Shown in pieces: positions 15,276 to 61,717 of a DNA stretch of 64,000 nt. The notes under the pieces were generated by a model, which made no database searches, had not been told where the DNA came from, and saw nothing but the letters and a program-made list of their open reading frames with translations. Both the position numbers and the translations under genes were made by a program. Where the stretch lies: contig JBHGNT010000013.1 of NCBI GenBank assembly GCA_043228905.1, positions 4,278,001 to 4,342,000 on the forward strand. The letters are read 5' to 3'. The DNA is from Azolla caroliniana. Its lineage: Eukaryota; Plantae; Polypodiophyta. Every line of letters starts with the position of its first letter. The stretch's first letter is position 1.

Positions 15276-18200
15276 TGTTCCGAAACTTAATAGCACTTAA
15301 ACACTAATGTAAAATAGAAAATATGTTGTGCAAGATTTAAAAGAATGCAAGAGAGATACACAACAAATCAATACACAATACACCACAAATTTTTAACGTG
15401 GAAACCCCTCAAAGAGGTAAAAACCACGGGACCTAGTCCAGAACTAATTCATTATCAATATAAATCTGAATACACCAAAGTTCTACTCTAAACAAGTTAG
15501 AGTACTAAGAGAAATCGACGAATATGATGTTTCCTCAAAAACTAAACTCAACAAAAAAGACACAAAAACCACCAAAATTCACAGCATGTGGCTGATGACA
15601 GATGCGGCGATGTCCGGATGTCTGAGTGTGCTGGTGTACTTGAGAATGCTTGAAGGAATCAACCAAGAAAGAGAGTATGAGCTCTCTAAAATCTGTTTTT
15701 CTCTGCTACTCTAGAGAAATGCACGTTTTTTTCCCCCTTTTTAACTCATCCAAAAGAATGAGTTACATAGTGTAGATATGTAATGTCTTCTTGTGTGAAC
15801 CCCTTTCGTACTATATTTTAAAAAATACAAGTTTTGGGCGTCCAAGGCCCATTTCATTTACATACTAATGTGGACAAAAAAACCCAACAATCTCCCCCTT
15901 TGGCCACATAAGAGAAGATTCCATTGAACCACTTAGTTTCTGTTCATTCCAGCAAGCTTGACATATAGCTCAAGCTTTTCTTTAGAGACTACCTTCGTCA
16001 ACATGTCAGCAACATTTTCATCTGTGTGAATTTTCTTGAGTTGTAGAAGTTGATCTTCAATTGCCGAGCGCAGCAATATGTTTCGTACGAGAATGGTACA
16101 TCAATATGTTTCGTACGAGAATGGTACATCGAGTTCTTGCTTAGATCCATTGCACTTTGGCTGTCACAAAATATGACATAAGTTAGTTGACTTAGACCCA
16201 AATCTAAAAGAAACCTTTTCAACCATAACATCTCTTTGGTAGCTTCAGTGGCTGCAATATATTCCGCTTCTGATGTAGACAAAGTAACACATTTTTGCAA
16301 CTTAGATTGCCATGATACGTCTCCCCCTTCAAATGTAAATAAGTAAGCTAAAGTAGATTTTCTCCCATCGAGATCCCCTGCCATATCTGAATCTGAAAAA
16401 CCTTCAAGAGTTTGTTTAGAATCTCCAAAACATAAACATAATTTTGATGTACCTCTTAAATATCAAAAGATCCATTTTACGGCATCCCAATGAGACTTAC
16501 TCAGATTGGAGAGATATCTACTAAAAACACTGACGGCATGGGCAAAATCTGGCCTTGTGCTAACCATAGCATACATCAACGAACCAATCGCTGAAGAGTA
16601 AGGAATTGAAGACATCTCTTCTTTCTCTTGCTTGTTATGTGGACAATCTTTTCTACATAATTTAAAATGGCTAGCAAGGGGGCTACTTACTAGTTTTGCA
16701 TTATGCATAGTAAACCTCTCTAATACTCGTTCTATGTATTTTTCTTTAGAAAGCCACAACTTTCCACATTCCCTATTGCGAGTAATTTTCATGCCTAAAA
16801 TATGTTTAGCATGGCCTAGATCTTTCATGTCGAAGGCCTTAGGTAGATCCACCTTTAACTTGTGGATATTGTCTACATCTTGTCCTACAATTAGCATATC
16901 ATCGACATGCAATAAGAGAATTATAAAATTACCTTCAGAAAAATGCTTAACATACACACAATGATCTCCATTAGTCTTGGTGTAGTTTTGACTCGCCATA
17001 AATGAATCAAACCTTCTATACCATTATCGCGGTGCTTGTTTTAGGATGTAAAGACTTTTCCTCAGCTTGTATACCATATGCTCATTTCCTTTCTCTTCGA
17101 AACCCTCCGGTTGTTCCATGTAGATCTCTTCTTTCAAGTCTCCATGCAAGAAAGCCGTCTTTATATCGAGCTGCTCAATCTCGAGATTTAAAGTGGTTGC
17201 CAAACCTAAAATAACTCGAATAGAACTCAATCTCACAACTGGTGAGAAAATTTCATCAAAATCAATACCTCTCTTTTGGCCGAAACCTTTTACAACTAAA
17301 CGAGCCTTATGCTTTACAAGGTTACCATCACCTTGTTTTAACTTAAACACCCATTTATTTATCAAAACTTTTCTTCCCTTAGGAAGTTCTAGTAAATTGA
17401 AGGTATTATTTTTCTTTATGAGTTCATTTCGTCGTGCATGGCTTTGTCCAATCATCCTTATCTTTATGGTTTAAAATGTCATAATAACTTTCAGGCTCCC
17501 CCTCGTCAGAGATTAAGACATAATCTGAACTAGGATACCTTACATATGGTTTTTGTTCTCTAATAGACCTTCTAGGTTGTTCATTGACCACCTCTTGTAA
17601 GGAAGTTTGCTCCCCCCGCTCAAAACCTGTTTGTGGTAAAATATCATCATGATTAGCTTCAACCCTATTATTTATAATACCTGGTTCATCAAGATCCTCA
17701 CAGTTTTCGTCTTGTTGGGAAGCATCTCCATATGTAGCATCTTCGGTCATAGGAATCGGGTCAAAATCTATAAGCCCACCATCTACTTGAGTGTTGGATC
17801 CTTTGACCTTTTCAATATCTTCGATAGTTTGATCCTCAACAAATACCACATCATGACTTCAAATAAGCTTCCTTTCTATTGGGTCAGAACATTTGTAACC
17901 AAACTCATCTTGGCCATAACCAATAAAAATACATTCTTTAGATTTACCATCTAACTTAGACCGTTCATCTTTGGGTATATGTACAAAACATATACACCCA
18001 AACACACGTAAATGATCATATGAAACATTCTTACCATACCAAACTCTATTAGGAACGTCGCCTTGCAATGCAACAATAGGAGATAGGTTAATAACATATG
18101 CAACGGTACTCGAAGCCTCACCTCAAAAAGATTTGGATAACTTTGCATCCGAGAGCAAGTATCAAAATCTTTCAACTAGAGTTCTATTCATCCTTTCCGC

Positions 18201-20329
18201 CAAGCCATTTAGTTGTGGGGTTTTGGGTGGTGTCTTTTGATGCTTAATCCCATGCTATCGACAGTATGCATTGAAAGATCCAAGGTATTCCCCACCATTG
18301 TCGGTGCGAATGCATTTCAGCTTTTTTCATGTCTCTCTTTCTACAGAACCATGAAATTCTTTGAACACATTAAATACTTGGTCCTTAGTTTTCAATGTTC
18401 GAATCCAAAGTTTCCTAGAATAGTCATCAATAAAAGTAACGAAATAGAGTGCACCACCTATTGATTTTACCTTTAAAGGACCACAAACATCTGAATGTAC
18501 CAACTCAAGTACCTCTTCCTTTCTTGAAGAAGAATGTTGTTTGAACGCGACTCTTCTATGCTTTCCTACCACACAATGATTGCACATGTCTAACTTAGCA
18601 TCTTTTAGACCCGGAAGCAAGCTTTTCTTGGCTAGACAATCAAGCCCCTTCTCACTAATATGAGACAACCTTTTATGCCATAGTTCTGACATATTGTTGC
18701 TTTCAGCTGCATTCACAAGATTAGTAGAGATAGATCCTTGTAATAAATACAAACTAGAGCATTTCTTACCACAAGCTACAACCAATGAGCCCTTAATGAG
18801 TTTCCATTGTCCTTCATTGAAGATGTTGCAATAGCCACCATCATCTAATCTTCCGGTTGAGATAAGATGTAAGCGAATGTTGGGTACATGTCTTACCTCC
18901 TTGAGAATCAACTTTGAACCCGTGTTGGTTTCCAAACAAATAGTCGCGATGCCTACCACCTTTGAAAGACCATCATTGCCCATCTTCACAACTCTGAAAT
19001 CCCCTGAAGTATAAGAAGTAAAAAACTCCCTTCTAGATGTGACATGGAACGATGCTCCACTATCAACAACCCAATTAGTTTTATTGTGAGCAAGATTAAT
19101 CACGTTTTCATCATAAACAACAAGTAAATCATCTGATGAAGTTGTATTAACACGATTAGAATTGTCATCGTTACCTTTGTTTTCATGCTTATCGTTATAT
19201 GTGTGGTTCTCCTTTTTCCACTTGTAACAATACCTCTTTATGCGTCTTGTTTTACCACAAAAATGACATTCTAGATTTTTATACCTTGGTTTTGATTTAC
19301 TTCTACTCTTCGGTTGTTTTGACCTTGGCTTGTATGCTTACTCCCCCCTCTCTCAACCATCAAGACCTCCGAATGTGACGATGTCCCTTGTGTCCTTCGT
19401 CTCATCTCCTTGTTTAGAACACTGCTCTTGACATATTCCATAGTTACAATTCTGTTTGGGGCTGCATTAGTTAGAGATACCCTAAAAGTTTCCCATGAAT
19501 CAGGGAGAGTGTTTAACAACCATAATGCATTAATCTCATCATCAAATTTCACTCCCATACCAAAAAGTTGGTCGAAACATCCTTGAAATTCATTTAGATG
19601 ATCTAATATGGAACTACCTTCTTTATACACTAAATGCATTGCTTGTTTAAGCAAAAATAACTTATTGTTACCTGTCTTTGATGCATACAATGTTTCGAGT
19701 TTATTCCATAGAGCTTTAGCATTAGTTTCATTCACAATATGGTTTAAGACATTATCTCCCACCCATTATCGAATAAAACCACATACCTGTTGATTCTCGA
19801 AAAGCCATTCCTCGGCAGTTTTGCTCTCTGGTTTAGCATATGCAAAACCATGTAAGTGTAAATTTTTCACAAAAAGAAGATCTTTCATCTTACCTTTCCA
19901 TTTGTGGTAGTTGGTGCCGTTCAAGGAAACCATTGTGGAAAAATTTGCCTCCATAAGAAGTGCTCAACCTTTGCTCTGATACCACTTGTTCCGAAACTTA
20001 ATAGCACTTAAACACTAATGTAAAACAGAAAATATGTTGTGCAAGATTTAAAAGAAAGCAAGAGAGATACACAACAAATCAATACACAATACACCACAAA
20101 TTTTTAACGTGGAAACCCCTCAAAGAGGTAAAAACCACGGGACCTAGTCCAGAACTAATTCATTATCAATATAAATCTGAATACACCAAAGTTCTACTCT
20201 AAACAAGTTAGAGTACTAAGAGAAATCGACGAATATGATGTTTCCTCAAAAACTAAACTCAACAAAAAAGACACAAAAACCACCAAAATTCACAGCATGT
20301 GGCTGATGACAGATGCGGCGATGTCTGGA
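15276..20329 (-). mobile_element. Ty1/Copia LTR retrotransposon A (defective; 5' LTR truncated)
   Basis: 3' LTR 15276-15889 (TG..CA) with PPT AAGGGGGAGAT. Partial 5' LTR 19987-20329. PBS TGGTATCAGAGC (tRNA-iMet) at 19973-19984. gag 19954-19271, PR WVVDSGAS, IN LVHSDVCGP, RT LLLHVDDMLI, RH TSEAEY; multiple stops and frameshifts. Confidence 0.95.
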
Positions 20330-22753
20330 GAAATTTTTTGAATATAGTTTTTGTATTTTCTGCTCACTCTGTCTCTCCCTCTCCTTCTCTGTGATTTTTG
20401 CATTTTATCGAATTGTCGTACTTCCGAACCGTGTACTCTATGCTCTTACACATACGCTTCCGCACACGTATTCTTTTACATGGTATCAGAGCGCGAGGGT
20501 TGAGACTCCTCTGCAGCGGACAGAAAAGCCCGCGATAAAGACAGAGTTAAGTTGTTGTTTTCGGAAAGGATAAGACAACAATATGGACAGAGGAATGGGA
20601 TTCAACTCGCTACCAACTGAGAAACTCGACAGGAGCAACTACGCATCTTGGTTGTACAAGATGCATTAGTATCTGCTTGGTCATGGTTACTGGAGTTATG
20701 TTGAAGGAGCTAATGATGCAGCACCCAAATCGAGACATAGAGACTTTCTGGCTGGGGAACAAGCGGCAAGCAGAGTTCTTTACTGCTTCATGTCCTGTGT
20801 GAGCAACCAGCTCTTCAGCTATATTCGGGATGCTAAGATGCCAAAGGACACGTGGGCGAATCTCAAGAGGATTTTCGCCACTAGCAGAACGGCCAGGAAG
20901 CTGCAACTCAGACAAGAGCTCAGCAATGTCCGACAGAAAGATCGTTCTGTGGCCGATTACACGGCCCGAACCAAGGAGATCTGCGATTCCCTCGCCTCTA
21001 TCAACGTGAACGTCGAGGAGGAAGAAATGGTGTAGGTTTGTCTTGGAGGGTTACCGTCAAAGTTCGGAGCATTCCAAACAGTGGTATGCATTAGGGAGAT
21101 TATGCCTTCGTTCTTCGAGCTTCAGTCGATGTTGCTCGTGGCTGAAAATCACGCGGGTGCGTCAACAAGTACGCACACCGAGAACAAGATGCTGTACACG
21201 GAAGAAGATAGGCCCCGTAGTCGTGGAAAACGAGGCGGATTAGTGCGCAATGGAGGCGGCCGAAAAGAATAGAACGTGCGGCATAATCAAAATGCCGGAA
21301 GCAGGGGGAGTCACAACGGCACCGGAAGCCATCAAGAGACAACTGCGACGGAATGCTGGTACTGTGGCAAGAAAGGCCACAGGGAGAGTGAGTGATGGAA
21401 GAAGAGAGCCAATTCGGACAAAGCCGAATCGAGTGGAAGAGACATAGGAAGGCGTCAAAAATCGCACTACGCCGAAGGCTCCGAATGAGCCGGAAATGGA
21501 TCGGGCCCAGCCTTCATAATGAAGCACAAGGCCAATTCGATGGGCGTGAACACCTCGAAATCGAGCAAGGTGTGATATGTTGATTCCGGAGCATCAAATC
21601 ATATGACGAGTCATGAGGAATGGTTCTCGTACTTGGAGAAACCGGAAAAACAACGAATGGTCGAAACGGGAGATGACACTCCGCATACCATCGAACATGT
21701 CAGAGAAGTTCCTCTCAGCCACATCGGGCAGAAAGGGAAACTTATGAACGTGTTGCACGTCCCGACAATAACCAAGAACCTGGTGTCGATCGGTCAGATC
21801 ATCGACTAGGGGATGCAAGTTCAATTCACGCACCTCGGGTGCTACATCGAAGAGGAAGGGCAAGTTATTGCACAAGGGCGCCGTGAAGGGAGGATATTCA
21901 TCCTCCACACCAATCAAGCCGGAACCGCACTGTTCACTAGAGGACAGAAGGTCGAGTCAGACATTGACCTGTGGCACAAGCGGTTCGGCCATGTTAACTT
22001 CCCACAGCTTCGTGAAATGCAGACGAAGAACATTGTTTTCGGTTTGCCGAAATTTCGATACCGTAATGGCCAAGTCTGCGAAGCCTGCCAACTCGGGAAG
22101 CAGCACTGGCTTCCATTCCCCATGAGAGTAATCATAGTTGAAATCCGCTGGATTTGATCCATTCGGATGTGTGGGGACCGACACAGAACATGAGTCTCGG
22201 TGGAAGCCGTTACTTTGTAACCTTCATCGATGACTTCACTTGGCATACCTAGGCATGCTTGATTGCGAAAAAGAGCGAAGTCTTCATGTGGTTCCTGAAG
22301 GTGAAGAGCCTTGCGGAAAGGGAAACTGGACGAAAGATCAAGTGCCTACGGCCGAATGGTGGGAAGGAGTACTTCTCCGACTAGTTCAGGAGATATCTAT
22401 AGAAGAGGGAATTCGACGCGAATACTTGTGTAGATATACGCCAGAGCAGAACGACGTAGCCGAACGGAAGAATTAGACGATCGACAAAGCCGCTAGGGCA
22501 ATGCTTGAAGAGAAGCATATGCCGAAGTTTTACTGGCCTGAAGCCATAAAGATAGTTGTTTACTTGCAGAATCGGACCTCTGCTAATGGAGGAGTGTCAC
22601 CACATGAGTTGTATTATGGCAAGAAGCCGAACTTGGCACACTTGAGGATTTTTGGCAGCATCGCGTACGTGCATGTGCCGAAGGAGAAATGGAGGAAGCT
22701 GGACGCCAAAGCCGAAAAGTGCATATTAGTTGGCTATTAAGATGAACAAAAGG

Positions 22754-23199
22754 TGTCATGAGATGGCAAGACGCGAACCCATGACCTTATGGTATATGGG
22801 TCGAGCTCTTAACCATCACACCATCTATTGTAATTCATAGGATATTATTTTCATTTATGTTTTATTATAAGAAAGTAATGTATATTCCAGATTTCTCTGG
22901 AACATTCTAGAAGTTTCAGGATTACTCCTGACAACACTATAAAAGAAGGCACTAGGCATTATGTTGAACCAAATTGGTTCAACGCCGGTCTTAAGCCTCT
23001 CAGCCGCTTTGTACTTATCTTTTCACATAATATATTAGCTGCTGTCATCATCTTTCTCTCTCTCTCTCATCCTCGCTATCTCTCTCTCTCTCTCTCTCCT
23101 CTTCTCACTTCCTCTCTCGGGAATCTTACATAGTCCCATCCTCTAAGTACTAATAGTACTACTCTTCTGAGTACTAATTCCATCTATGCTTTAGTACTA
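22754..23199 (+). repeat. Inverted copy of element C LTR (lacks only the last 9 nt of U5)
   Basis: Reverse complement of 25652-26102, about 97% identical by eye. Confidence 0.95.
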
Positions 23200-24415
23200 A
23201 TAGTACATGAGAATCGTGCTCTTGCTGGGTCTTCGAATAAATCAATAGATCATCAAGATAGATGATCAAACAGATATCCACGAGGTCTCTGAATATATCA
23301 TTTGCCATGTGTTGGAAGACTGCGGGTGCATTGGTTAGGCCGAACGGCATAACAGTATACTCGAAATGCCCATACCGTCTGCGAAAGGCGGTCTTCCATT
23401 CATCTCCCGGTCGGATCCGCACGAGGTTATACGCTCCTCGTAGATCGATTTTGGTAAAAAACTTGGCACCATTAACTCGCTCCAAAAGACTTGATATAAG
23501 AGGAAGTGCATACCTATTCCGGATGGTGACCTTATTCAATCCGCGGTAATCAACGACGAGACGAAGTGAGCCATCTTTCTTCTTGACAAAGAAGATGGGT
23601 GCACCGGCCGGAGATTTCGAATGACGGATGAACCCGCTTGCCAAGTTCTCCTCTATGTAGGCTTGAAGGACTTCTAACTCGGTGGGTGATAAGTTGTAAA
23701 TTGGTCCCCATGGTGGCTCGGTTCCTGGTTGTAAATCAATGGGACAGTCATAGGGACGGTGATGAGGAAGGGTACCGGCTTTTACCTTTTCAAATACATC
23801 GGCATAAGGATGATATTTTGCCGGAAGTAGTACTGAGGAGTCCTTCTTAATAGTGCTGGAAGGATGTACTGATATTGCAAATAGGAACATTGCCTCCTTG
23901 TGTCCTTGTTCGCGTAATTGATGGAGTGAAATGGTCGAAACTCGGTGAGTAGATTCTTGGGGTGGTCGATAGCGGACTTCTCTTGTTCTCCAATCTATGG
24001 CTGGATTATGTAATTCAAACCAAGGTAATCCTAGGACAATGGGATGCTCTGGACTACTAATTATATTAAATGATATTACACACACAAAACTACCTAGGAC
24101 AACTTGAATGGGTTCTGATTCTTCTACAATATTCCCGGAAGCAATGGGACGACCATCAATGACTACTACAGATGCGAGACAAGGATGTTTTCTTAGGGAT
24201 ATCTGAGAAGCTTGGGCAAAATTTCGATCGAAACAGGAATTAGCTCCAGAATCTAAGAGTGCTAGGACGGGTACTGGGGGAGTACTTTTAGTACTAACAA
24301 TGACTTGGGCTAGGAACACATTGCTAACTTGCTTGGAAGGAATGGAACCACTAATGGGCTGTACAGATCTAGGGCTGCTGTCCAACCAAACGGCTCCTAT
24401 TTTGGCTGGACTCAA
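23174..24415 (-). pseudogene. Gypsy pol fragment: aspartic protease plus N-terminal RT, truncated by the inverted LTR
   Basis: ALLDSGA protease motif; KKDGSLRLVVDYRGLN, MPFGLTNAP, YLDD. Runs into LTR sequence after HDSHVLLVL. Confidence 0.9.
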
Positions 24416-25569
24416 TCGATTAACTCTTCATCTAATTGACTAAGGATTTCAAATTTGTTTGAGATACTTGGGCTATTAGTACTATGAGTACTATCTGACA
24501 CTCTATTAGTACTATTAATACTATCAGACACTCCGAAGGGAAGAATTGACTCGGGTTTAGTACAGGCGATGATTTGATTTACCTGTCTTCTTGGCCTATG
24601 GGGACAATTGATGGCGATATGCCCTGGTCCACCGCAATAAAGGCATAATCGATTGGCATGTCGTCGTTGCTTTTCTTCTTCCGATAACGAGCCGCGTCGA
24701 CGCATGGTGTCGATCTCCATCGGTGTCGGAATATTGGCTTGAGCTACATCGCGTGCAAACAGTTTAGCCGTGACTGAGGCGTATGTGGGTTCCGGCCGAG
24801 AGCGTGGTATTTGTAACTGACGCTCTGAACGCCGTTCGAAAAGGCGGTTGTCGCATCGGACCGCTCGACTGATTGCCTCCGTAAGAGACTTTGGTTCTTC
24901 GGGGAAGGTTAAAAGCAGATCTTTGACATCATTGCGCAAGCCGTAGCGAAACTGCTCCATGAGGGCCTTATCATCCCAGGGAATATCTGAGGCGAGTAGA
25001 CAGAAATCCGCCGCGTAGGCAGAGGCTGGACGATCGCCTTGACGCAATCTTCGGATCTTGTTGATCGCCGTCCTGATGCTGTCGGTATCTCCAAAGCAGG
25101 CTTTAAACTCACCAATAAAATCTTCAAAGTTATTAAGCAAGGGGGATTGTTTTTCTAGAAGCGGAGCGAACCATGCCAAGGCTGAGCCGCTAAGTAACGT
25201 GCCTATTAGGCCGACTCGAGATGCATTAGTGGGATATCAGGAAGGATGCATCTGGATGACTAAGCGTACCTGATTAAGGAATCCCCGGAATTGCGATCGC
25301 GTTCCATCAAATTTCACAGGAAGTCCAATCTTGGGCTCTTTATGAAATCCTTGGGGACTTGATCCTTGTTGTTGCAACGCTGCTTCGAGTTGTTGTACCC
25401 GTAATGCTAACTCCCCATGTTGTTGTTGCGTTTGTTGTTTTTCGAGAGCGATTTGTTGCAGATCCCCTATCAACCATTGGTTTTCTTGTTCCAGGGCAAC
25501 AAACTTTTGTTTTAGGCATTGTAACTTGGAGAAAACGGATTGATATTCTTGGGCGCTAACAGTAGCCAT
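24412..25569 (-). pseudogene. Gypsy gag (Retrotrans_gag/DUF4939-like with CCHC knuckle), one in-frame stop at ~25237
   Basis: ORFs 25237..25569 and 24412..25179 are in the same frame. Motifs PVKFDGTRSQFRGFLNQ, PTPMEID and CLYCGGPGHIAINC. Confidence 0.9.
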
Positions 25570-26770
25570 AGTATAGGGAAAAGGGTAGGAGGATGAGGGA
25601 GAACGACAAGTAGGCTGGAGGAAAGGAGAAATTGGTTCAAACTGTCAGGAATAGTACTAAAGCAGAGATGGAATTAGTACTAAGAAGAGCAGTACTATTA
25701 GTACTAAGAGGACGGGACTGTGTAAGATTCCCGAGAGAGGAAGTGAGAAGAGGAGAGAGAGAGAGAGAGAGATAGCGAGGATGAGAGAGAGAGAGAGAGA
25801 GAAAGATGATGACAACAGCTAATATATTATGTGAAAAGATAAGTACAAAGCGGCTAAGAGGCTTAAGACTGGCGTTGAACCAATTTGGTTCAACATAATG
25901 CCTAGTGCCTTCTTTTATAGTGTTGTCAGGAGTAATCCTGAAACTTCTAGAATGTTCCAGAGAAATCTGGAATATACATTACTTTCTTATAATAAAACAT
26001 AAATGAAAATAATATTTTATGAATTACAATAGATGGTGTGATGGTTAAGAGCTCGACCCATATACCATAAGGTCATGGTTCGAGTCTTGCCATCTCATGA
26101 CAAAAGGGGTATAAGTGCTATAACCCCCGAACGAAGGAAGTTCGTGTAAGCCAAGATGTCGTGTTCGACGAGTCCGCTTTGTGTTACTTGTCTTTGCCTC
26201 CAATCCATGATGACTCCATTCCGAATTCTGAAGAAGAGATCAGCGAGGTCGAGCTGCCTCAGCGTGATGAGGAAACCGAAACTCTAACAGAGAGTCCGAT
26301 CTCATTTCGGCTAAGCAGGCCGAATGAAGAGCCGAGGAGATTGGAGACTCGGTCGTGCTGTCCCCGCGCAAAGAGCCGAGGAGATGGTTTATGCGTAAAG
26401 AAAAAGGGAGGAAGAAAATGTCAGATTACAATTTTGGCAATGCCAAGTCAGACCAGAGCGAGTCCGATTTCAGACCAATCGAAAAGGAATCTCCACAAAA
26501 GAGGTCGAAATTGGCCGAAAAGACCGTGAAATTGGGTAATCACGAATTATGCCGATTTACCCACCTGAAGAACCCCGTAAAGAGGTACAGGTACAATGAA
26601 TACATGGCACACCATTACGCGTACATGACATGAGTGGCGGAAGTGCGTGAGCCGGAGAGCTACGCAGAAGCGGCGAAAGACGCAAATTGGCGTGCCACGA
26701 TGGAGGAATAGATGCGCGCATTAATGGACAATGAGACTTGGGACCTGGTTGACGCACTCAAGGGTGTAAA

Positions 26771-29700
26771 TGTTGGCATAAAAGGCCAACTCCTTCCAAA
26801 TTGTATCCGTCCGAGTGTCAACCTGTTAATAAGTTAGGGCTTAGTATATAAGCGAATACCTAACATTGTAATGAGTGATGACGAGCAAAGTATCGAATCT
26901 CTGAGAAAGAACGAAGCAATAAGAAGCTTTCCATTAAAGCTCCATCTGTGTAAGTCTCCACACCTATGCTATTTTTCTGTATGTGTTGTTTGCTATCTAG
27001 TACCGACTACAGATCCATACATGTTTCCGCACATAGAACTCGTACCCAATAATTAGTATCAAAGCATAATCTTTAGTGTTCGGCGGCAATAGACAACAAA
27101 AGAAGCTGAAAGAAAAGACCAGGTCAGAAATCTCAAGTTCACAAACAGAATATGGCGTCAACATCCGGAACAGGAGTTGAAATCAGAAAATTCGACGACA
27201 AAAACTTTGCCTTGTGGAAGGAGATGATGTTGGATGTGCTAATCATTCGAAGACAGGTCAAAGCCATTCGGCACAACGAAAAACTTGCTTCAATGACATC
27301 CGAGGAGTGGAGATCAACGGACGAAATCGCACGCTCCACCATCCGAATGCATCTAGCCAAAAACATTTATTTCAGCATGGCGAAGAGACGATAACGTTCT
27401 CATTGTGGGAGAAGCTACATGCCATCTATGAGAAGAAGTCCTCGTCTTCGAAACTGATCTTGACCAAACAATTGTTCAACATGAAGATTAAAGAGACTGA
27501 TTCGGCAACCTCTCACATCAACACCTTCATCTGAGTGTTGTTAGAGCTTTCGTCACAAGGGATCAACTTCGAAGAAGAAGTGAAAGCCCTTGCCCTCCTA
27601 TCGAGCTTGTCGGCGAGTTAGAAGGTATTCTGTACGACTTACGCCAATAGCCGACCGATCCTAAATCTGGACGGAACAACTGGCCAAGTCCTCACAGAGG
27701 ACATTAGGCGAAAATCGATGGGACTAACCATCAATGAGTTAGTGGAAGCCCATCACTCGACTGAGTCGTTCGACCGATAGAGTCGAACAAAAGAAGAAGC
27801 CGACAAAACCGGTCGACGCTACAACCGATCGAAAACAAGGGGTGACCGACAACGGTCGAAGTCGAGAATGGGCTGAACAAGTGAGTACTACAAACATTGC
27901 AGGAAATCTGCCCACAATGTTTTCGACAACTGGTCAATAAAAAGAAAAGAGAGTGGTCAGCGATCTGAGCGGAATGCGGGACATTCTGACTCGGACCACT
28001 CTCCAGTTGGCAACCAGATCAATGTTACCGACACCCGATCCAGAGAAATCCTCTCCCTAGAGAATTCGTTGATTGGAGAAGTCCTCTACAGTGCACAAGT
28101 TGCACACACGTGGCTACTAGACTTTGGTGCCACATTTCACGTGACCCCCAACGTTGAATGGTTCTCGAACTATTCAGCTGATGCCAGCGGCACAATCCGA
28201 CTAGGAAACGGGCAGGAGTGCAAGATAGGCGGAACCGGGGAGGTTCCCATCAGATTGCCAAATGGCAACACAATAACCCTGCACCGAGTTCGGCACATAC
28301 CTGATCTAAAGAGGAGTCTGGTTTCCATCGGCATATTAGCGGAAGACGGGTATTGAACGACTCTACACGAGTTGACATGGGTGATTAGCCGAGGAAACCT
28401 CAAAATCAGTACTGGGCATAAGTATAATAATCTATACCCATTGATGGCGATCAACCCTGAAGGGGCCGTGAACGTAGCCGAGAAAATCGACCCGGAAAGT
28501 TTGGGCATACTCCATAAAGTCCAAAGATGAAGCGCTTGAGGTCTTCACTCGACGGATATCTGAAGGGGAGAACCGGTCGGGACACAGAGAGAAGACACTC
28601 CGATCCGACAATGGAGGTGAGTACACCTCCAAATCCTTCAAACAATACCTGTCCGAAAAAGGGATCCGGCATCAAAAGATCGTTCCTTACACACCCATGC
28701 AAAATGGGGTGGCTGAACGGATCAACCGAATGATCCAGGAGAGGGTGACGGAAATGCTCCAGCAAGCCGGACTGAACCTGGAATTCTAGGCCGAGGCATT
28801 GCAGATGGCAGTGTACCTAATAAATCTGGCGCCATCAAGAGCAATCAGGCTCGAAGTGCCACAGGCACTATGGTCAAGCAAACAACCGACCTACAATAGG
28901 CTCCGTATATTCGAATGCGAAGCCTATGCGTTCATCCCCAGGGACAAGAGGTTGAAGTTGGCACCCCATACAACAAAGTGCATATTTCTTGGTTATGGAA
29001 CCGATGGGGACTTCAGCTACTGGCTATGGGACCCTGAGAACCGGAAATTGATCTGGAGTAGTGACATAGTATTCAATGAAGACTCTATCATCTCTCAACG
29101 GAACCAACAAAAAACAATTGGTAAGAAGGTATCCTTCAAAGATGACAACATTGTCATAGAAGGACAGACCCAACGGGCCAAATCAGAGACTTGACAAACA
29201 ATCGAACTCCAACAAAGTGCCAACTTCCCCGCCGACACCGAATCAGCAACAAGTCCTAACGTCGAACTCAAAGACCAAGCAATCAAAGACACAACCGAAT
29301 CGACAAGAGTCGACAAAGGCAGAGTCGTGAAGAGGCCAGTAAGAACCAAGTCGACAACAACCACAAGGGAGAACCAACAAACACCTAACAAGACTCCTGA
29401 CACAACTGGTTCAACAAATACCGATCGTCAATCCGAACCGATCGAAGAATCCAAACCAGATATTACAGCACCTAGGAGATCTGGACGAGCTCGAAGGCAA
29501 ACAAAGTTTTATTAACCAAGCCTCGACTATGTCCACTACATGGATGTAGGCGAACCACGCACGTATGACGAAGCTATGGCCGCACCGGAAGCCAAAACAT
29601 GGTTGTAGGCCATGAAATCTGAAATAGACTCGATTCATCAAAATCACACATGGGAGTTCGTCGAACCACCAGCAGGAAGAAAGCCGCTACCTTGTAAATG

Positions 29701-31601
29701 GGTGTTCCGATACAAGTATGTATCTAACTTAGAGAAACCCAAGTACAAAGCTTGGCTTGTCACGAAAGGATTCAAACAGGAATACGAGGTCGACTACGAC
29801 GAGATATTCTTACCAGTAGTCAAGATGACCACCCTCCGACTCCTACTAGGAATCGTGGCGACAGAAGATCTAGAGCTCGAGTAGATGGATGTAAAGACGA
29901 CATTCCTACACGGAGATCTGGAAGAAGACATATACATGTCTCAATCGGCAGGCTCCACGACGACGGGGGAGGACAGTCACCTCGTTTGTCGACTAAAGAA
30001 AAGTCTATATGGCCTAAAACAAGCACCGAGAATGTGGTACCAGAAGTTTGACTCCTACATACAACAACTTGGATACAACAAATTAGACTCCGACCCATGC
30101 ATGTATGTTCGGCAACTGGCCGATGAGTCAAGGATCTATATGATCCTATACGTTGACGACATGTTGATTGCAGGGAGCAATCAAACAGAGATCGGTAAGC
30201 TAAAGCGGAGCCTTCATGCAAAGTTCGCAATGAAAGAACTCGGACAAGGCTGACACATACTGGGCATGAGGATAGAGCGAAATTGGACGACCAAAACTCT
30301 CCGACTCTCCCTGTCTGAATACATCCGCAAGGTGCTGAAGCGCTTCAACATGGAGAAGTCGAAGCCAACACCGACACCGCTTCCGACGTTGATTAGACTA
30401 TCGGATAGAGACTCTCTTGCCACGGACAAGGAGAGAGAGCTTAATGGAAAGATACCCTACGCATCGGTAGTAGGAAGTATCATGTATGCAATGGTGGCGA
30501 CCCGACCTGACCTAGCCTATGTCGTAGGGGTAGACAGCCGGTACATGTCAAACCCAAGAAAGAAGCATTGGGAGGCCATCAAGCACATCCTTAGGTATCT
30601 AAAAGGAACCCTAAATGCACAACTGAATTTCGGACTGACAACCTTAGCCGAAGTCGAAGGCTACACCGATTCCGACTATGCCGGAAATACGGACAATCAA
30701 AAATCGACATCAGGCCACATCTTCACCTATGGTGGCGGTGCGATATCATGGAGGTTGAAACTTCAAGAATGCACGACTCTGTCTACCACAGAAGCCGAGT
30801 ATATAGCAACATCGGAAGCAGCGAAGGAAGTGATCTGGCTGCACCGACTGACTGCCGACTTCGGAACTCCAAACTGAATAGACCGACCAGTGCTAACTAT
30901 CTATTGTGACTCACAGAGCGCAATACACCTCATCAACAATCCCGTCTACCATGCGAAGACGAAGCACATTGAGGTGCGGTATCATCATATCCGGGAGATC
31001 GTGACCGAGAAGAAACTCGAAGTCCGGAAGATCGACACCGAGGTGAACATCAACGATTGCCTGACGAAGCCACTCCCAGATCAACGCTTCGGAACGCTAA
31101 GGACGAAGATGGGGCTATGATAAGCGACCAAGTAGAAGAAAGCCAAACGAGGAGCAGAAGGTAAGAGCTGACCAACATTCATACTATACCTCTGCCGACT
31201 TGGCTACTTGCCGACAGACTTGTAACATAAGATCTAGTTAAATTTGTAATCTAGGTTTACGAGGGAGATAACCCCAAGCACTTGTACATGCAAGAAAGAG
31301 TAGTCCTTTTACGGGGGAGTTTGTTGGCATAAAAGGCTGACTCCTTCCAAATTGTATCCGGCCGAGTGTGAACTCGTTAATAAGTTAGGGCTTAGTATAT
31401 AAGCGAATACCTAACATTGTAATGAGTGATGACGAGCAGAGTATCGAATCTCTGAGAAAGAACGAAGTAATAAGAAGCTTTCCATTAAAGCTCCATCTGT
31501 GTAAGTCTCCACGCCTATTCTATTTTCTGTATGTGTTTTTCGTTGTCCAGTGCCGACTACAGATCCATACACGTTTCCACACATGGCACTCATACCCAAC
31601 A
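26771..31601 (+). mobile_element. Ty1/Copia LTR retrotransposon D nested in B (full structure, defective)
   Basis: LTRs 26771-27051 and 31322-31601. TSD GTAAA at 26766-26770 and 31602-31606. Decayed PBS TAGTATCAAAGC, PPT GGGGGAG. gag, PR (WLLDFGAT), IN, RT (YVDD) and RH fragments. Confidence 0.95.
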
Positions 31602-33999
31602 GTAAAGCCGATTGGATGTAGATAGGTGTTTAAGGTGAAATACAACACCAACGGCTCGGTCAACTGATATAAGGCCCATTTGGTTGCGAAAGGCTACGCG
31701 CAGAAGCACGACGTAGATTACGATGAGACCTTTGCCCCAGTCGCGAAGATGACTACCGGGCGAGTTCTGCTAGCCGTAGCGGCAACGAAGGGGTGGCATC
31801 TACATCAGATGGATGTAAAGAATGTGTTCCTCCAAGGTGATCTCGAGGAACAAGTGTACATGGTACAACCCCCTGGATTTCTATCCAAACTGAAAACTTC
31901 GGCAGTCTGCCGATTGAAGAAGGCGTTGTACAGACTTAAGCAAGCCCCGCGAGTTTGGAATGCAAAGATTACGCAACGGTTGCATAGAATGGGGTTTACG
32001 ACATAAAAGTTGGACTCGTTGTTCGTTCGGCAAGGTCAACATGAACTGGTTTGTCTTTTACTTTATGTTGATGATTTAGTCATTGCCGGTGCCGACCTGG
32101 AAGAAATCGGCCATGTAAAGTCTCAGCTTGTGGCATTGCTCGAAATGAAGGATCTTGGTGACCTTCATTACTTCCTCGGGATCGAAGTGATCCGTTCCCC
32201 CGAAAGCATATTGACCAATCAGCGTCATTACGCGTTGAATATGCTCTTCAAGTTCGGGATGGCAGATTGTAAGCCCATCTCGATCCCTCTGGATAGAAAC
32301 GTAAAGCTTCGCCGAGATTCGGGAAAGGCATGTGACTCGACATGGTTTCGACAGATTGTCGGAAGCCTCATCTACTTGATGATCACTCGACCGAACCTCA
32401 GTTATCCGGTCGGAATGATCAATCAATTTATGTCACAACCCATGATCAAACATCTTCAGTGCGCACAAAGGATATTACGATATGTCAGTGGCACGAAATA
32501 CATGGCGTTGTTGTATCGTGCAGACGCAGTCAAGTAGTTAGTCGGCTACACGGATGTCGATTGGGCGGGAAATGTTAACAATCGTAGATCCACATCCGGA
32601 TATGCATTCTCATTGGGAAGTGCGGTGATCGCGTGGAGCAGTAAGAAGCAGCCGACAGTAGCATTGCCGAGCACTGAGGCAAAATATCGAGGGGTGACTG
32701 TCGCTACGTGCGAAGTCATTTGGCTGAAACAGCTATTACGGGATCTACACTTAGAGGTGTTCGATCCAACGACTACTACGACAACCTCCGCAACATCCAC
32801 CTTGCAAAAAACCCTGTATTCCACACTCGAACTAAGCACATTGAGATGCATTACCATTTTGTTCGCGAGTGTGTCCTTTCTGGTGAAGTCGAACTGGCGT
32901 ATGTTCTGATGGGTTGGCAGATTGCCGATATCTTCACCAAGTCCCTTGGTCTCGACACGTTACGACATTTCTCGATTGAGCTGGGTTTGCGTCACCTCGA
33001 CACGCCGAACTTGAGGAGGAGACAGGAACATGAACAGGAGCGTGAAAGGAGCGGTAGTAACCGCGATGCCGAATCGGATGAAGAATTCGATTTCGGGCCG
33101 ACTGAAGAAGCCGAAGAAAAAACAGGGGCCGTAATCGCAAGGAAGAGCCGAAGACAGCCAAACAAAGGGGAAACAAAGCCAAGAAAGGTGTAAAAGCCAA
33201 GACTAAGACATGGTCGGACGTAGTTAAGGGCTTGAAGACAGAAGACGAATTGGAGACAGCCAATTTGAGTGAAAGCGAGAATGAATTGGAAATGTTCAAT
33301 TCGGATACGCTAAATCAACTAAGGGCCAAGCGGAGAAAATAGCAGCGAAATAGGCGCCAACACCGCGACAGCAAGGGAGCTGAGAAAGGCCACATGAGTA
33401 GACAAGCCGACCGAAAGGGTCGAAGCGCGCAGAATCAGATGTGTCGAGGAGCGCGAGCGAGGCGTGAAGCCAGGAGAAGCCGGAGCGAAGATCCGGAAAA
33501 GCATATGGAACCTCAAGTTGAGCTTGAGGGGGAGTGTTGAGAGACAAGCGTAACCCAGTGTGTAGACTAGGTGTGTAAAACCATACGCAAAATATGGCCG
33601 TGGCAGTGTTTAAACCGAAAGGCCATTAGAACGTTATTCCACGTAAGGAATAGCTTTGGGAGTTAGTGTAGAAGGCTCATTTATGAGCGGTCAAGTACTG
33701 TTAGTACTTGTGTCAGCCCGATAGTCAGGGCTTGTATAAAAGGTGCTCACTGAGCACGAAATATGTACAGAGAACATACAGAGAATTATTTTTTAATATA
33801 GTTTTTGTATTTTCTGCTCACTCTGTCTCTCCCTCTCTTTCTCTGTGATTTCTGCGTTTTATCGAACTGTCGTACTTCCGAACCGTGTACTTTGTGCTCT
33901 TATGCATACGCTTCCACACATGTATTCTTTTACAAGGAAGAAATAGGTCGGTCAACTTTAAATAAAGTATGGCCAACATAAGAGTCTGCATTGTAACAT

Positions 34000-54879: not shown

Positions 54880-57800
54880 TGTCAGGGTCGTAGCCAAAGA
54901 CAATTTTAAAATGAAGAAAAGATTGAGAACTAGAAAAAAAGAAGTGAATGAGAGAGAAATAAGATGTTGAAAATGTATTAGCAATGTGAATAAGGGTTAC
55001 AATAACAATGAGAACAAGGGTTACAAGAGTATGCCAAAGACTGGTGTTGAACCGGAATGGTTCATCAATACTTCGATACATGTTTATATAGCATGCTTTG
55101 GATACATGCATGCTTGCCACCTCATAGGCACACATTATCGCCATTTGGCATTCATGCATGCTTGCCACCTCATTGGCACACATTATCGCCATTTGGCATT
55201 CATGCAAGCATGACACTTGGTAATCATGCGTTAGCCTATGCGGTAGCGACGTTTCATAATATTATATATGTTTTTTCTTGATCTAATACAAGAATTTATA
55301 ATTTAATATATATAATATAATGTATCCTAGCGGTTGAAGCTACACATCACAATTAAGGAGGTCATGGGTTCGAATCTTAGTTATGAGTCTTGGATTTTTG
55401 GTATATGTTCATGACATTATCCCCTTCCTTTGACGACGAGTTCCACGAATCGTAATGCACAAACTAGGAGTTGGGTTATTTAAATATCATTGATGAAATT
55501 CAACTACAAGTTTTTTGGTATTATTGAGTGTTTCAGCTAGCTCCCACGTTCGATCTACAGGTGTATAACCGAATCAATCAACAAAATAATACAATTTGCT
55601 CTTCACAACTTTGGAGTCCAAAATGGATTTCACTTCATATTCTAGGCCTTCATCAAGCTCAATAGGAGGTAGAGGGGGAACAATGCAATCTGGAAAAGAG
55701 TTTGAAGCATAAGGCTCCAAGAGTGAGACATGGAACACTAGATGAAGACGCATATGAGGAGGGAGATCGCAATGAAAAACAACTTCATTGATTTGTTTAG
55801 TGATTAAATATGGACCAAGGCGTTGATAATCCACCTTGTCACAAGGCCTAGTGGTCTTCACATTACATAGTAAGAGCCATACACGATCTCCAACTTGAAA
55901 TTTGGGTTTTTATGGTGATGAGTTACGTTGATGGCGATCTGGAAATTTCTTATGGGTGTAATGAGCATGATGTAAATGATGAGAAAGAGCAATATGAATT
56001 TCTTGGATATGACCTATGTGATCCTCCGCACTAGGGTTTTTCAAGATTTTTGGGTGGTCAAGCATTATCCAACGAGGATGAGCACCCATGTTGGCAAAGA
56101 AGGGAGTAAGTTTGGAAGAAGAATGAATTGAATTATTGTAAGAAAATTGCGCAAAATGTAAATAATCTACCCAATCATCCTGTTGATAATTGATGAAGCA
56201 ACGAAGGTATTGTTCCAAGGTTTGATTGGTACGTTCGGTTTGATCATTAGTCTCTAGATGATAGCTTGAAGAGAGTTTACAATCAATTTGGAGGAGCCCA
56301 AACAAGTGTTTCCAAAATGTCAAGATAAATTGTGGTCCTTGATCACTAATGATATCATTAGGAAGACCATGATACCGAAACACTTCACGCATAACCAAAT
56401 CTGTTGTCTCTTGACTATTAATAGTCTTTGTGCATGGTAGAAAATGTGCCATCTTAGTGAACCAATCTACAACAGTAAGGATGGAATCAAAACCTTTGGA
56501 AGATGGAAGATAAGTAATGAAATCCATAGATATAGACTTCTAGCGACCATCAAGAACTTGTAAGGGTTGGAGTAAACCATACGGTCGATGCCAAGGACAC
56601 TTGGACTGACGACATGCATCACAATTGCGAATGTAGTTCTCAACATAATTATGAAGATGCGGCCATCAATCATTTTTAGAAACTAATTCCAAAGTTTTGT
56701 GAACTCCAAAATGTCCGACCATTGGCATGTCATGGCAGTGTTGTAAAATAAGGAGTCGAGAACGGCCATCAGGGACATAAAGTAAATTATTTCAGAAAAG
56801 TAAATTGTCATGTCAACTAAACTGATTATAATCTTTACGAGAATTCACGGACCTTGAACAAGAAGCATGATCTGGAATGATATGATTCAAGACATCTTGT
56901 GTAAATTCGTCTGCTTCAAGATCAGTATGAATCGTACTAATAAGTATCGAGTCTGTGGGCATCTTAAAAGCATTAGTGACCATCACTTGTAAATGATTAG
57001 GACCAAGGAGGATCTGCTTTTGATGATCAAAAGTAGGTTCCCCTAAATTGGGTGCCATGTAGGAACATCGAGATAGCACATCCAGCTTTCCCTAGTGTAT
57101 TATGGGGCAATACACGATCAAGAAATCAAAGCGTGTAAGAAATTGTGCCCAACGATCCTGTTGGCGATTTAAGACTCGAGCATTCGGGAAATACGTTAGG
57201 TTCTTGTTATCATTATAGACAATGATTTGATGGGGAGAACCTTCCAAGAAGTGGCGCCAATGCTCAAAAGAGTCTACAATAGCCAAAAGCTCCTTGTTGT
57301 GAATCTCATAATTAATTTCCGCAGCTTCAAATTTCTGTGAATGAAAAGCAACTAGATATAATAGCCCGTTTTCTTTGGGTTGTGAGAGGGCACTCCCGAG
57401 TGCAAACTCAGATGCATCAGCTTCCAAAATTAAAGACTTTTCTTGTTCATCATGGATAAAAATAGGAGTTGATGTGAATGCACGTTTTAAGCTTTCGAAT
57501 GCCTCAACTGCACTAGAATTCCATATGAATGGTTGGTTTTTAGTGTTAATTATGTAAGAGGCAAAACCTTCTTTGAGTAGTTCCTCATAAATTTGCGGTA
57601 AAAATTCACAAATCCCAAGAAACACTAGACATCACACACAGATTGTGGTGTTTCGGACTCTAGAATTGTTTGCACCTTTGCTGGATCCATAGATATTCCT
57701 TCTGGTGATATTATGTACCACTTGGTTGAGATCAAAACTACATTTCTCGAGTTTAGCATAGAGACCATATTCTTGTAATTGTCGTAGAACTTGGCGTACA

Positions 57801-60318
57801 TGTTCATCATGTTCTTCTTGAGTCTTGGAAAATATCAAGATATCATCTAAATAAATGATGGTGAATATATCCAAGAAGTCTCGGAAAATATCATTGGCCA
57901 TATGCTGAAAAACCGCAGGAGCATTTGTGAGACTGAAAGGCATAACTGTATACTCAAAATGCCCATATCGAATGCGAAATGCAGTTTTCCCTTCATCAAC
58001 CGGACGAATTCGAACTAGATTATAAGCACCTCTAAGATCGATCTTTGTAAAGTATTTGGCTCCACTCAACCGCTCCAAAAGTGTTGGTATTAAAGGTAAG
58101 GCATACCTGTTTCGAATTGTGATTTTGTTTAATCCTTGATAATCTATGACCAAACGAAGCGATCCACCTTTCTTCTTGACAAAAAAATATTGGTGTGTCA
58201 ATAGGAGATTTGGAATGACGAATAAATCCAATAGCTAAATTTTCATCTATATAGTCGCGAAGAACCGTGAGCTCTACAGGTGATGTTTTCCTGGTTGAAG
58301 ATCAATAGGACAATCGTAAGGTCGATGTTCAAGGAGTCTAGCACTTTTTCCTTATTGAAGACATCTTGGAATTCTTGATACTTGGCTGGAAGTAAGGTAC
58401 TCGACTTTTGTTGAGTTGGTGTTGGCATTGTTATTATCACAAATATGAACATTTCTTCTTTCTACCCCTCTTTGCGTAAGTTTTCCAGACATATTGTTGA
58501 GATCTTGTGGCACTCTAAATTTCAATAGGGAAATTTGATATGTGGTTTTTCTTGGATTTTAGGATAACTCGTTTCCTCCGATCAATTTGGGGGTTGTGAA
58601 GCTCAAACCAAGGTAGACCAAGGACAATCGGATGCTCAAGTCTATGTATGATATTGAATGAGATGACACAAGCTAAATCATTGAGAACTACATGAACTAA
58701 TTCAAACTCTTCAGTTATGTCTCTAGAGGCAATGGATCGACCATCTATGACTGTGACTAATACTAGATTTGCAATGGTTTTAATAAGATATTATGTGTCA
58801 AGGCAAAATTTTGGTCCATGAAACAAGAGTTGGCTCCTGAATCTAAGAGAGCATATGCAAAGACCCGATGACATCTAGAGGTACTAACCTCAACTTGTGC
58901 CGCAAAAACCCTATTAACTTGGTTCGATGAAATGGAACCATTACTATGGATTGACGCTACAAATGATGGGTTATCCAACCAAATGGCTCCCTATTTTGGC
59001 TGGATTTACTCGTTTAACACCTCATCTAGTTGGCTAAGTACTTTAAAACGATTTAAAGGTGTAGGGATACTAGGATTGCTAAATGCATTTGGAGAATCAA
59101 GATCCAATTTAGTACTAGCACTTGGAAATCGAGAAGCAAGTCCTTGTCGAAATTGATCCATCAATGCCTCTTCGTCCCAAGGAATGTCACATGCAAGAAG
59201 GTGAAAATCAGCCGCATAGGCTGAGGCTAGGCGATCCCCTTGTCATAACCTTCGAATCTTAGTAATAGTTGTTCTCATGCTATCGGTATCTCCAAAACAA
59301 GCTTGTAACTCTTTAATAAACTCATCAAAATTATCCAAAATATGGCACTTTTTCTCGAGTAACGGCGTAAACCAAGCCAATGTTGTAATAGGCAATAGAG
59401 TCCCGACCAACCCTACTCGTGCCGCATCCGTTGGATATCGAGTGGGATGCATTTGAAATACTAGATGTACCTGATTTAGAAATACTCGAAATTGTGATCG
59501 AGTACCATCAAACTTCAATGGGAGACTAATCTTGGGTTCTTTTGTCGAATTTGGTGCTTGTAATGCTTGTTGTCACAATGTTATTATTGTTGTTTCAAGT
59601 TGGTGAACCCTTTGAGTTAATTCTTCATGTTGTTGAGCTTTCTCGACATTCATTTGTTGTAAATCCCCGAGCAACCTTTGATTCTCTTGCTCCAAACCAA
59701 GGCTATGAACTTGGTGCTCAAGCGTTTAAGATCACCTAGAACGCGCATATATTCTTGTTCACTTACTACTGCCATGGTTATGAGAAGATAGGATGAGATG
59801 TTCCTTGGAAAAAAAGATTACAATGAAGAAGGTTATGGATTCCGGTTCAAATTGTCAAGGTCGTAGCCAAAGACAAGTTTTAAATGAAGAAAACAATGAG
59901 AAGTAGAAAATAAGAAAGGAATGAGAGAGAAATAAGATGTTGAAAATGTATTAGCAATGAGAACAAGGGTTACAAGAGTATGCTGAAGATTGGCGTTGAA
60001 CCGGAATGCTTCATCAATACTTTGATACATGTTTATATAGCATGCTTTGGATACATCCATGCTCGCCACCTCATAGGCACGCATGATCGGCGTTTGGCAT
60101 TCATGCAAGCATGCCACTTGGTAATCATGCGTTAGCCTATGTGGTGGCGACGTTTCATAATATTATATATGTTTCTTCCTGATCTAATATAAGAATTTAT
60201 AATTTAATGTATGTAATATAATGTATCCTAATGGTTGAAGTTACACCATCATCTTTGAGGAGGTCATGGGTTTGCATTTTTATTACGAGTCTTGGAGTTT
60301 TGGTATATGTTCATGACA
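54880..60318 (-). mobile_element. Tcn1-like chromovirus (Ty3/Gypsy) element G with normal direct LTRs, defective
   Basis: LTRs 54880-55416 (with internal duplications) and 59853-60318. TSD AAGTC at 54875-54879 and 60319-60323. PPT GGAAGGGGATAA. gag, PR LLDSGA, RT YLDD, RH DASEFALG, IN MDFI, chromodomain EYEVKSILDSK. Confidence 0.95.
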
Positions 60319-61037
60319 AAGTCACCATAACACTCGACACGTTTCTACTTTAGATTCCCCAAAATATAGCACATGCATGCATTTTCTCTTGCATTTGGAG
60401 AAATTGTTGAGTAACTTCCCATATTCTTCTCTTTCTTTGAGTAAGCCTTTTGTACTCATGCAAATGTTTTTGGTAATTTTCCTTATCCTTAACTACATCC
60501 AAAATCATAAGGCACTTTCGAGCTTCATGACATTCTTTATCAAACCATTTTTTCTTTGAACTACATTTCTTGATGCATTTCCAAGATGTGAGCTTGGTCG
60601 AACAACATTTCTTTGCACATGAGAGAATGACTTTCTTAAAAGCTTCCCATTTGCATTCTAGTGTGGCACTATGTTGTATCTTTTTCATTTGTAACATATC
60701 CTCAACAATCTTGGTGCACATGGGCGCTCGCTTAAGGTTCATCCTCAAGTGGGGTTGTTTATTATCTTCAATGGTCTTCTCACAATCAAACCTATGCATA
60801 CATTTGAGTTCAATACATAAAGCTCTATGATCTGATTCCCATGTCCATTCACCAAGTGAGAACTTATGTATACGATCCAATATACCTTCAAAAAGTAGCA
60901 CATAGTCAATTACACTATTTCCATTGTATTTTCTACATGTAAAACCATCAGTGTTGGGCCATAAGGAAACACCATTTTGCAATAAGAAATTCGGTACTAT
61001 TGCACATTTGTAGGAGTAACTTTCCAAATTGGTCCGG

Positions 61038-61680
61038 TGTCGTGAAGATGTTTTACTACGGTGGGGAAGCCGGGTGGAGCGAATAAAATGGAGATGTGCA
61101 CCGTTTGCACATCCTCCTCAATAAAATGTAGATACTAATGAGAAAAGGAGGGGTGTAAGGGGAGGAATATTTGGCCTCCCACATTGTTAGGTCCCTCTCT
61201 CCTTGAACTATAAAAGGAGGTGAGGGGGCTCTTCTTAAAGGGTCGCCCATTTTGAGTTAGGATGATGTACCGTTAGATCTAGGGTTTGGTAGTTTTCTCT
61301 TCTTCTTCTTCTTATTTTGTGTGATCTAGGTTTCATGAGTTTGGGGGGTTTGGGTCTCACCTTCTTCTTGGTTGAGTTAGGGTTTTGGTTTCAGGTTCCT
61401 ACAATGGCGGCCCTTCGGCATTCCGGTGGCGGCATTTGGTGGCTCGACTTCTTCTCCTCAATGGAGAGCATTTCGTGTGGTGGCCGGTTCAAGAAGGGAG
61501 GGTGAAGTGGCACAGGAACACTCCATCTTCGAGGCGTGACCAACGGTGGATGTCATGGTTCCGACAGCCCACTTGACTTGTCTTCGCCAATTCTCATTCG
61601 TTAACTTGTATTTAGCCAATTGTTTTGTAATAGCCATCGGATTTGTGGCATGTAAGCCATCTTGTTGTAAAGAATTTGTA

Positions 61681-61717
<37 letters not shown>

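Follow-up and report, generated by a model that had tools for sequence, protein, structure and literature searches.

A Gypsy-type retrotransposon copy with inverted long terminal repeats in Azolla caroliniana, a probable single insertion of an aberrant cDNA

The DNA analysed here is a stretch of 64,000 nucleotides of Azolla caroliniana (assembly GCA_043228905.1, contig JBHGNT010000013.1, positions 4,278,001 to 4,342,000 of the forward strand), referred to as the window, whose first letter is position 1. At 22754-26102 it harbors a Gypsy-type retrotransposon copy of about 3.3 kb, in which the front-end long terminal repeat (LTR) is found at either end, the two repeats facing inward (the mirror-ended copy). 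On the minus strand, the order of the parts is 5' LTR (26102-25643), primer-binding site (PBS), gag, protease (PR), partial reverse transcriptase (RT), and an inverted LTR copy (22754-23199). Both outer termini are U3 ends: AAAGG is followed by TGTCATGAGA from 22754 on the left, and TCTCATGACA, ending at 26102, is followed by AAAGG on the right. The features of the copy and of its flanks are the following:

22749..22753, plus strand: target-site duplication (TSD) AAAGG, left copy
22754..23199, plus strand: inverted LTR copy, comprising U3 (with its TG end outward), R, and U5 minus its last 9 nt (from the sequence and the family U5 contigs)
22937, within 22754..23199: TATA-like box of the inverted LTR copy
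23190..23199: 10-nt microhomology TTTAGTACTA, which is both the U5 3' end and RT antisense; putative switch point (from contig ends and the RT of the relatives L001-L003 and L064)
23190..24427, minus strand: pol fragment made up of the protease region and of RT with its YLDD motif, truncated about 22 codons beyond YLDD
24412..25569, minus strand: gag with a CCHC knuckle and one in-frame stop after codon 110
25629..25640, minus strand: PBS TTGAACCAATTT, complementary to an LTR stretch, predicted self-priming (12 nt paired in the fold)
25643..26102, minus strand: complete 5' LTR, 460 bp, TG...CA, with four AGTACT palindromes in U5
25875..25886, minus strand: predicted self-primer and R start AAATTGGTTCAA, 34 nt past a TATA-like box (from the fold; putative transcript start)
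26103..26107, plus strand: TSD AAAGG, right copy

The gag protein (P0002) matches the domains Retrotrans_gag, Ty3_capsid, and zf-CCHC, while the PR-RT frame (P0001) covers positions 1-174 of the 205 of RVT_1 and ends with ...HDSHVLLVLK, at a point where a 93%-identical family protein (P0003) goes on with RLRENG towards RNase H, integrase, and chromodomain. The stretch HVLLVL was considered as a product of the joint and rejected, being native to the family RT. Neither the domain matches nor the alignment to the intact relative L001 disclosed RNase H, integrase, a chromodomain, a polypurine tract (PPT), or a direct 3' LTR in 22754-26102; hence, the direct LTRs, PPT, and integrase by which an intact LTR retrotransposon is recognised are missing from this copy. 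A preliminary description of the window had reported the same order of parts, closed by a reverse-complement LTR, and the same losses except that of the chromodomain; the order is present in the window, and the losses, including that of the 3' part of RT, are borne out by comparison with P0003 and L001. The structure is confirmed at the assembly level, and the window contains no N.

The copy is embedded in a Copia element, and another Gypsy element of the same window, element G, was used as a control:

20328..33937, plus strand: host Copia element, approximate extent (from an LTR-like pair at 20328-20483 and 33781-33937, TGGTATCAGAGC after 20483, and Copia-type matches)
54880..60318, minus strand: related element G, with direct LTRs, TSD AAGTC, a PPT-like tract, and the same self-priming layout

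Two insertions break up the host Copia element, namely the mirror-ended copy and, at 26771-31599, a second element of Copia type. To the left of the mirror-ended copy, the host frame can be read as ...CILVGY*DEQK, and to its right as KGYKCYNP..., the overlap corresponding to the five duplicated bases; three further Copia-type stretches of the window can be aligned up to GY, and we take the frame at the insertion to be the usual Copia motif. A 5-bp match between flanks is expected by chance about once in 1024 cases if uniform bases are assumed. Since element G is also flanked by a 5-bp TSD, this is the length expected for the group. The mirror-ended copy, therefore, exhibits what an insertion by integrase leaves behind, i.e., exact TG..CA ends and a TSD of the family length. 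The AAAGG flanks, the host frame running across them, and the direct LTRs of element G had all been claimed previously, and each of them can be read in the window.

The joint between RT and the inverted LTR was compared with public sequencing data. Five of the 20 listed runs, all of them consisting of contigs, were compared, and the joint was examined in the four runs rich in the family. Over 23138-23256, the contigs of these four runs split: the RT pieces begin at 23190 and carry on as normal RT, and the U5-side contigs stop at 23199, then read TTCCTGACA, and then enter the PBS or the flanks. It follows that TTTAGTACTA belongs to both parents and that the U5 of the inverted arm is short of its final 9 bases (TTCCTGACA). 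The junction, previously placed at 23180-23230, is thus correctly located, and can be narrowed down to 23190-23199. The 10-nt overlap is exact and is present in intact family members; joints drawn at random between LTR antisense and interior reached 10 nt in just 2/200000 cases, which indicates a homology-directed switch. The RT site is able to pair with U5 in registers of 16, 11, and 10 nt. Of these, the joint makes use of the 10-nt register closest to the U5 3' end, the 16-nt match being located 40 nt deeper in U5; this choice would fit the 3' end of a plus-strand strong-stop DNA acting as primer. Of the 76 related loci, 14 retain the AGTACT of the RT site. Complementarity to the U5 end is likewise shown by sites in PR (near 24290) and at the end of gag (near 24480-24520), so that further switch hot spots are predicted there. 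In the window at 25652-25710, the four U5 AGTACT palindromes fold into local hairpins and correspond to the sites in RT, in PR, and at the end of gag.

On the whole, it is likely that the mirror-ended copy represents a single insertion, in which two plus-strand cDNA ends mis-annealed to form a U3/U3 cDNA that was then inserted by integrase. Plus-strand synthesis after second-strand transfer would have proceeded through U3-R-U5-PBS-gag-PR-RT, reaching TAGTACTAAA in RT; this end could have annealed to a second plus-strand strong-stop DNA at its U5 3' end (TTTAGTACTA) or, alternatively, by fold-back to the U5 of the 5' LTR of its own strand. The annealed end would have been extended back to the U3 tip, one mis-annealing being sufficient. 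Through an equivalent route, a strong-stop DNA 9 nt short might have primed on plus-sense RT sequence. Each terminus of the product would be a normal attachment end of U3, and an intact element sharing the particle would provide the integrase to join the two U3 ends with a 5-bp stagger. The excerpted text of PMC11042837 describes the 3' ends of Tf1 cDNA as single-stranded and heterogeneous, and integrase-independent insertions of HIV-1 (human immunodeficiency virus type 1) as mostly devoid of TSDs. The preliminary description had also proposed a rearrangement preceding integration, with acceptance of a U3/U3 cDNA by integrase; the exact ends, the 5-bp TSD, the homology-directed joint, and a rare allele shared by the two arms speak in favor of it.

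That allele emerged from the comparison of the two arms (22754-23199 and 25652-26102), which differ by two indels and, over 445 columns, by 12 substitutions (2.7%). The previously reported length of about 446 bp stands, and the identity of about 97% holds for substitutions alone, becoming 95.8% once gaps are counted. At LTR position 161 (22914), both arms carry T, where C makes up 95.6, 93.7, 97.0, and 97.1% of the family contig depth in the four runs; this shared rare T suggests that the two U3s stem from a single source. The U3 portions of the arms differ at 3 of 216 sites. The changes were polarised on six relative sequences (three differences being not polarisable), which assigned eight derived changes to the inverted arm, seven of them in R-U5, and two events to the 5' LTR, both in U3. 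The difference between U3 and R-U5 (Fisher p 0.14) makes a two-template origin of the arms suggestive only.

The same comparison bears on the possibility that two independent insertions struck one target in opposite orientations, and that a deletion at microhomology then removed most of both. The family is strongly repetitive (on 3.7 kb, including the host Copia, each run has 13358-21524 contigs), the arms are 2.7% apart, and unevenly so, and opposite-strand nested joints do exist in the relatives L069 and L068. However, the second insertion must have hit the exact edge of the first, the allele present in both arms accounts for just 3-6% of the family depth, and the U3 parts are nearly identical, so that we regard this course of events as quite unlikely.

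A number of observations weigh against the single insertion of a U3/U3 cDNA. Just a single copy is known, i.e., that of this window, and no paper showing the acceptance of two U3 ends by integrase was found by the literature search. Reads holding the locus were not found in the public runs compared, the best share of words being 0.55, and the listed host-flank contigs carry 12-21 differences per 120-190 nt (about 10%). The changes of the arms are lopsided: seven of the seven to eight polarisable R-U5 changes fall in the inverted arm, five of them no more than 70 nt from the joint (p 0.016-0.07 for R-U5, post hoc; 8:2, p 0.11, for the whole arm). Such a pattern could reflect two co-packaged templates, error-prone repair synthesis, a second insertion, or chance. 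Lastly, the two ends of the LTR form an inverted repeat themselves, TGTCA...TGACA, through which a double switch after integration might yield the same sequence and retain the TSD; the intact TSD, from which a rearrangement before integration had been deduced, is alone no proof of it.

According to this last scenario, a normal insertion came first, and a template switch during later replication or repair swapped its 3' half for an inverted LTR, with exit at the RT/U5 microhomology, return at the terminal TGACA of the LTR, and the TSD kept. The event would presumably be of the fork stalling and template switching/microhomology-mediated break-induced replication (FoSTeS/MMBIR) type. The LTR starts with TGTCATGA and ends with TCCTGACA, a 7/8 inverted match, the 10-nt microhomology suits any switch mechanism, and the derived changes cluster by the joint in the inverted arm. 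Nevertheless, two switches are required, and the return must have occurred at exactly one of the 917 possible matches of at least 5 nt, the terminal one being the only match that preserves the TSD, whereas integrase yields exact ends without such a coincidence. We therefore consider a switch after integration improbable, though less so than the double insertion.

As for the missing reads, the public runs compared seem, from the divergence of their sequences, to come from individuals without this locus, in which case the lack of cover is no evidence against the structure. An artefact of the assembly or of chimeric reads would agree with the fact that no read set confirms the locus; the differences between the arms are unlike a read chimera, the TSD and the host frame are exact on both sides, and the window has no N, so that such an artefact is very improbable. 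An overlap of 10 nt is too short for assembler joins.

The search for further copies with the same joint was carried out on contigs and on related loci. No contig bridging the joint was found among the 32 longest listed of the 842 contigs lying over it (with at most 67 nt on the stretch, in the four runs), and no joint at the RT/U5 site was reported from the contigs of these runs; as contigs can drop rare variants, this search speaks only against a many-copy joint. No LTR-to-gag/pol joint occurs among the 15 listed of 107 joints, no U5-side inverted LTR joint in the 76 related metagenome loci, and the scan of viral contigs gave 19 pattern matches and no confirmed relatives. Inverted self-matches were detected in two of the 76 loci, i.e., L024 (short hairpins) and L068 (pol/pol), and opposite-strand LTR-like matches in ten, nine of which are 60-122-nt matches in the middle of the locus's own LTR, the tenth being L069. 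In L068 (1-2298), a pol stretch (RT, RNase H, and the start of integrase, 1-1519) abuts an inverted pol piece (1524-2298), with arms 85% alike; there is no LTR at this joint, which may have arisen as a mirror product of two parents or through a deletion between copies in convergent orientation. In L069 (4-228), a reversed family U3 end is joined to the gag of a more distant relative, resembling a nested insertion or an autointegration joint. In L004, L017, L020, L034, and L066, the 3' part of pol is followed by a single LTR and then by the 5' part of pol, a layout expected for LTR-sharing tandem elements or for collapsed circular assemblies.

Non-autonomous families that propagate include terminal-repeat retrotransposons in miniature (TRIM), large retrotransposon derivatives (LARD), and types similar to miniature inverted-repeat transposable elements (MITE), and would be recognised by one internal joint recurring in several copies with different TSDs. 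The mirror-ended copy had been proposed to be either a rare aberrant product or the prototype of a comparable class with terminal inverted repeats (TIRs). Its TG..CA inverted ends and TSD do resemble the termini of Ginger, as excerpted from PMC2836005, and gag and PBS are kept; yet it possesses neither integrase or transposase, nor PPT, nor a direct 3' R, its gag contains a stop, no listed contig bridges its joint, and the 76 loci contain no U5-side inverted LTR. The proposal is, hence, not sustained, and membership in such a class has very little probability.

As to known systems, a literature search retrieved no description of integrase-inserted Gypsy copies with inverted LTRs, older retrovirology being outside its coverage. 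Such molecules might already figure in older work in J. Virol. on rearranged unintegrated retroviral DNA. In the literature search, the term "inverted LTRs" turned up only in DIRS papers and for engineered vectors (excerpts of PMC13370168). The template-switch LTR complexes of Triticeae, rice, and maize (Sabot and Schulman 2007, excerpts of PMC1950507) similarly derive from aberrant particle cDNA that was integrated as a single unit, flanked by a TSD and with outer LTRs that match, but their LTRs are direct, three in a row, whereas the switch considered here changes strand and gives inverted LTRs. In defective HIV-1 proviruses, too, premature or misdirected first- and second-strand transfers still lead to integration, but these are deletions only, and the words "inversion" and "inverted" are absent from the excerpted text (PMC12657518). 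DIRS elements share inverted terminal repeats around gag and RT (PMC7192593, PMC5633606, and PMC3950715); they differ in using a tyrosine recombinase, while the mirror-ended copy has a Gypsy RT, TG..CA ends, a 5-bp TSD, and no recombinase. Membership in DIRS, an order marked by a tyrosine recombinase and an internal complementary region, was rejected, since the whole interior aligns to the Gypsy element L001 and the domains found are those of gag and RT only. Ginger1 and Ginger2 have inverted termini starting with TG and a short TSD, but their TIRs are 40-270 bp long, their transposase is integrase-like, and their TSDs are of 4 bp (excerpts of PMC2836005), against arms of 446 bp and a lost integrase in the present case; membership in Ginger was discarded because no integrase sequence was found inside 22754-26102.

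The parent of the mirror-ended copy was likely a chromovirus of the Tf1/sushi (Tcn1-like) group. The contig of L001, 89% identical, supplies the rest of RT, RNase H, integrase, the chromodomain, a G-rich PPT, and the direct 3' LTR, and the domain order gag, PR, RT, RNase H, and integrase is obtained by joining the gag-PR-RT of the copy to the RNase H, integrase, and chromodomain of P0003/L001. The chromodomain (PF00385; EYEV..VDWLGY), lost from the copy, is found in P0003, and we assume that its aromatic-cage positions are Y/W/Y. In an RT tree including 28 of 122 proteins, none of them a named Tcn1 reference, the element clusters with fungal and vertebrate matches, apart from those of seed plants and algae (support 100/99). 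As far as the excerpts of PMC6317226 and PMC2864245 go, the Tcn1 clade and the Tf1/sushi group share with the copy a CCHC gag and a separate pol frame, TG..CA LTRs of about 450 bp, a 5-bp TSD, and a PBS complementary to their own LTR and, via the intact relative, RNase H, integrase, a Y/W/Y chromodomain, and a PPT; the copy differs from the Tcn1 clade in its inverted LTRs, its two U3 ends, and the lack of a 3' half. The parent is also predicted to self-prime, given that a 12-nt pairing forms in the fold between the PBS TTGAACCAATTT and AAATTGGTTCAA of the same LTR; the excerpts of PMC6317226 assign this layout to both the Tcn1 clade and the Tf1/sushi group. The range that PMC6317226 gives for Tcn1 would point to a non-seed plant as host. 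The predicted self-primer lies inside a near-perfect palindrome, GTTGAACCAAATTGGTTCAAC (22960-22982 and 25875-25897 in the window), which is also found in L001 and which places a PBS-like copy just upstream of the predicted R start.

According to our prediction, the mirror-ended copy can no longer copy itself: first-strand transfer would find no direct 3' R, and both PPT and integrase are missing. Its transcript would fold R-U5 onto the inverted arm, with a calculated duplex energy of -414.5 kcal/mol, and so would not be recopied. Since a TATA-like box is retained in both arms, RNA of convergent or hairpin type might be directed against the family, with the copy as a possible source of hairpins or antisense.

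A broader proposal is that mirror-ended insertions are a general and overlooked product of LTR reverse transcription, missed by LTR finders and steered by the AGTACT of U5 to hot spots in RT, PR, and the end of gag, from which TG..CA TIRs would originate in one step together with hairpin or antisense silencers of the family; we regard this as tentative and rather doubtful. If true, the one-step origin of TIRs would provide the missing step proposed for Ginger, provided that a copy kept integrase; the copy described here has none and cannot itself be an intermediate between LTR elements and transposons. In the excerpts of Bao et al. (PMC2836005), the way in which LTR elements gave rise to DNA transposons is called unclear, and TIRs are proposed to arise from two opposed LTRs through two insertions; if the class were common, the inverted ends would have a single-step origin instead, annotation based on direct LTRs would miss the mirror-ended copies, and these could seed the silencing of a high-copy family. 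Each such copy would preserve an error of strand transfer in fossil form and suggests that two U3 ends are acceptable to a Gypsy integrase in vivo; the site of the error being predictable here from the sequence, the mechanism lends itself to a direct test. Taken as a single dead copy, the present one would have little importance.

Other features were observed in the window. A 1.1-kb repeat is present in two copies (702-1775 and 52652-53733), 87% alike and in opposite orientation, whose open reading frames (ORFs) have no Pfam match. Inverted arms of 105 nt (88%) flanking 55 nt, MITE-like or hairpin-RNA-like, are located at 6833-7097, and a tandem array of 39-40-nt units at 1867-2300. On the minus strand, at 60350-63086, endonuclease-like ORFs (Exo_endo_phos) probably belong to a long interspersed nuclear element (LINE) adjoining element G.

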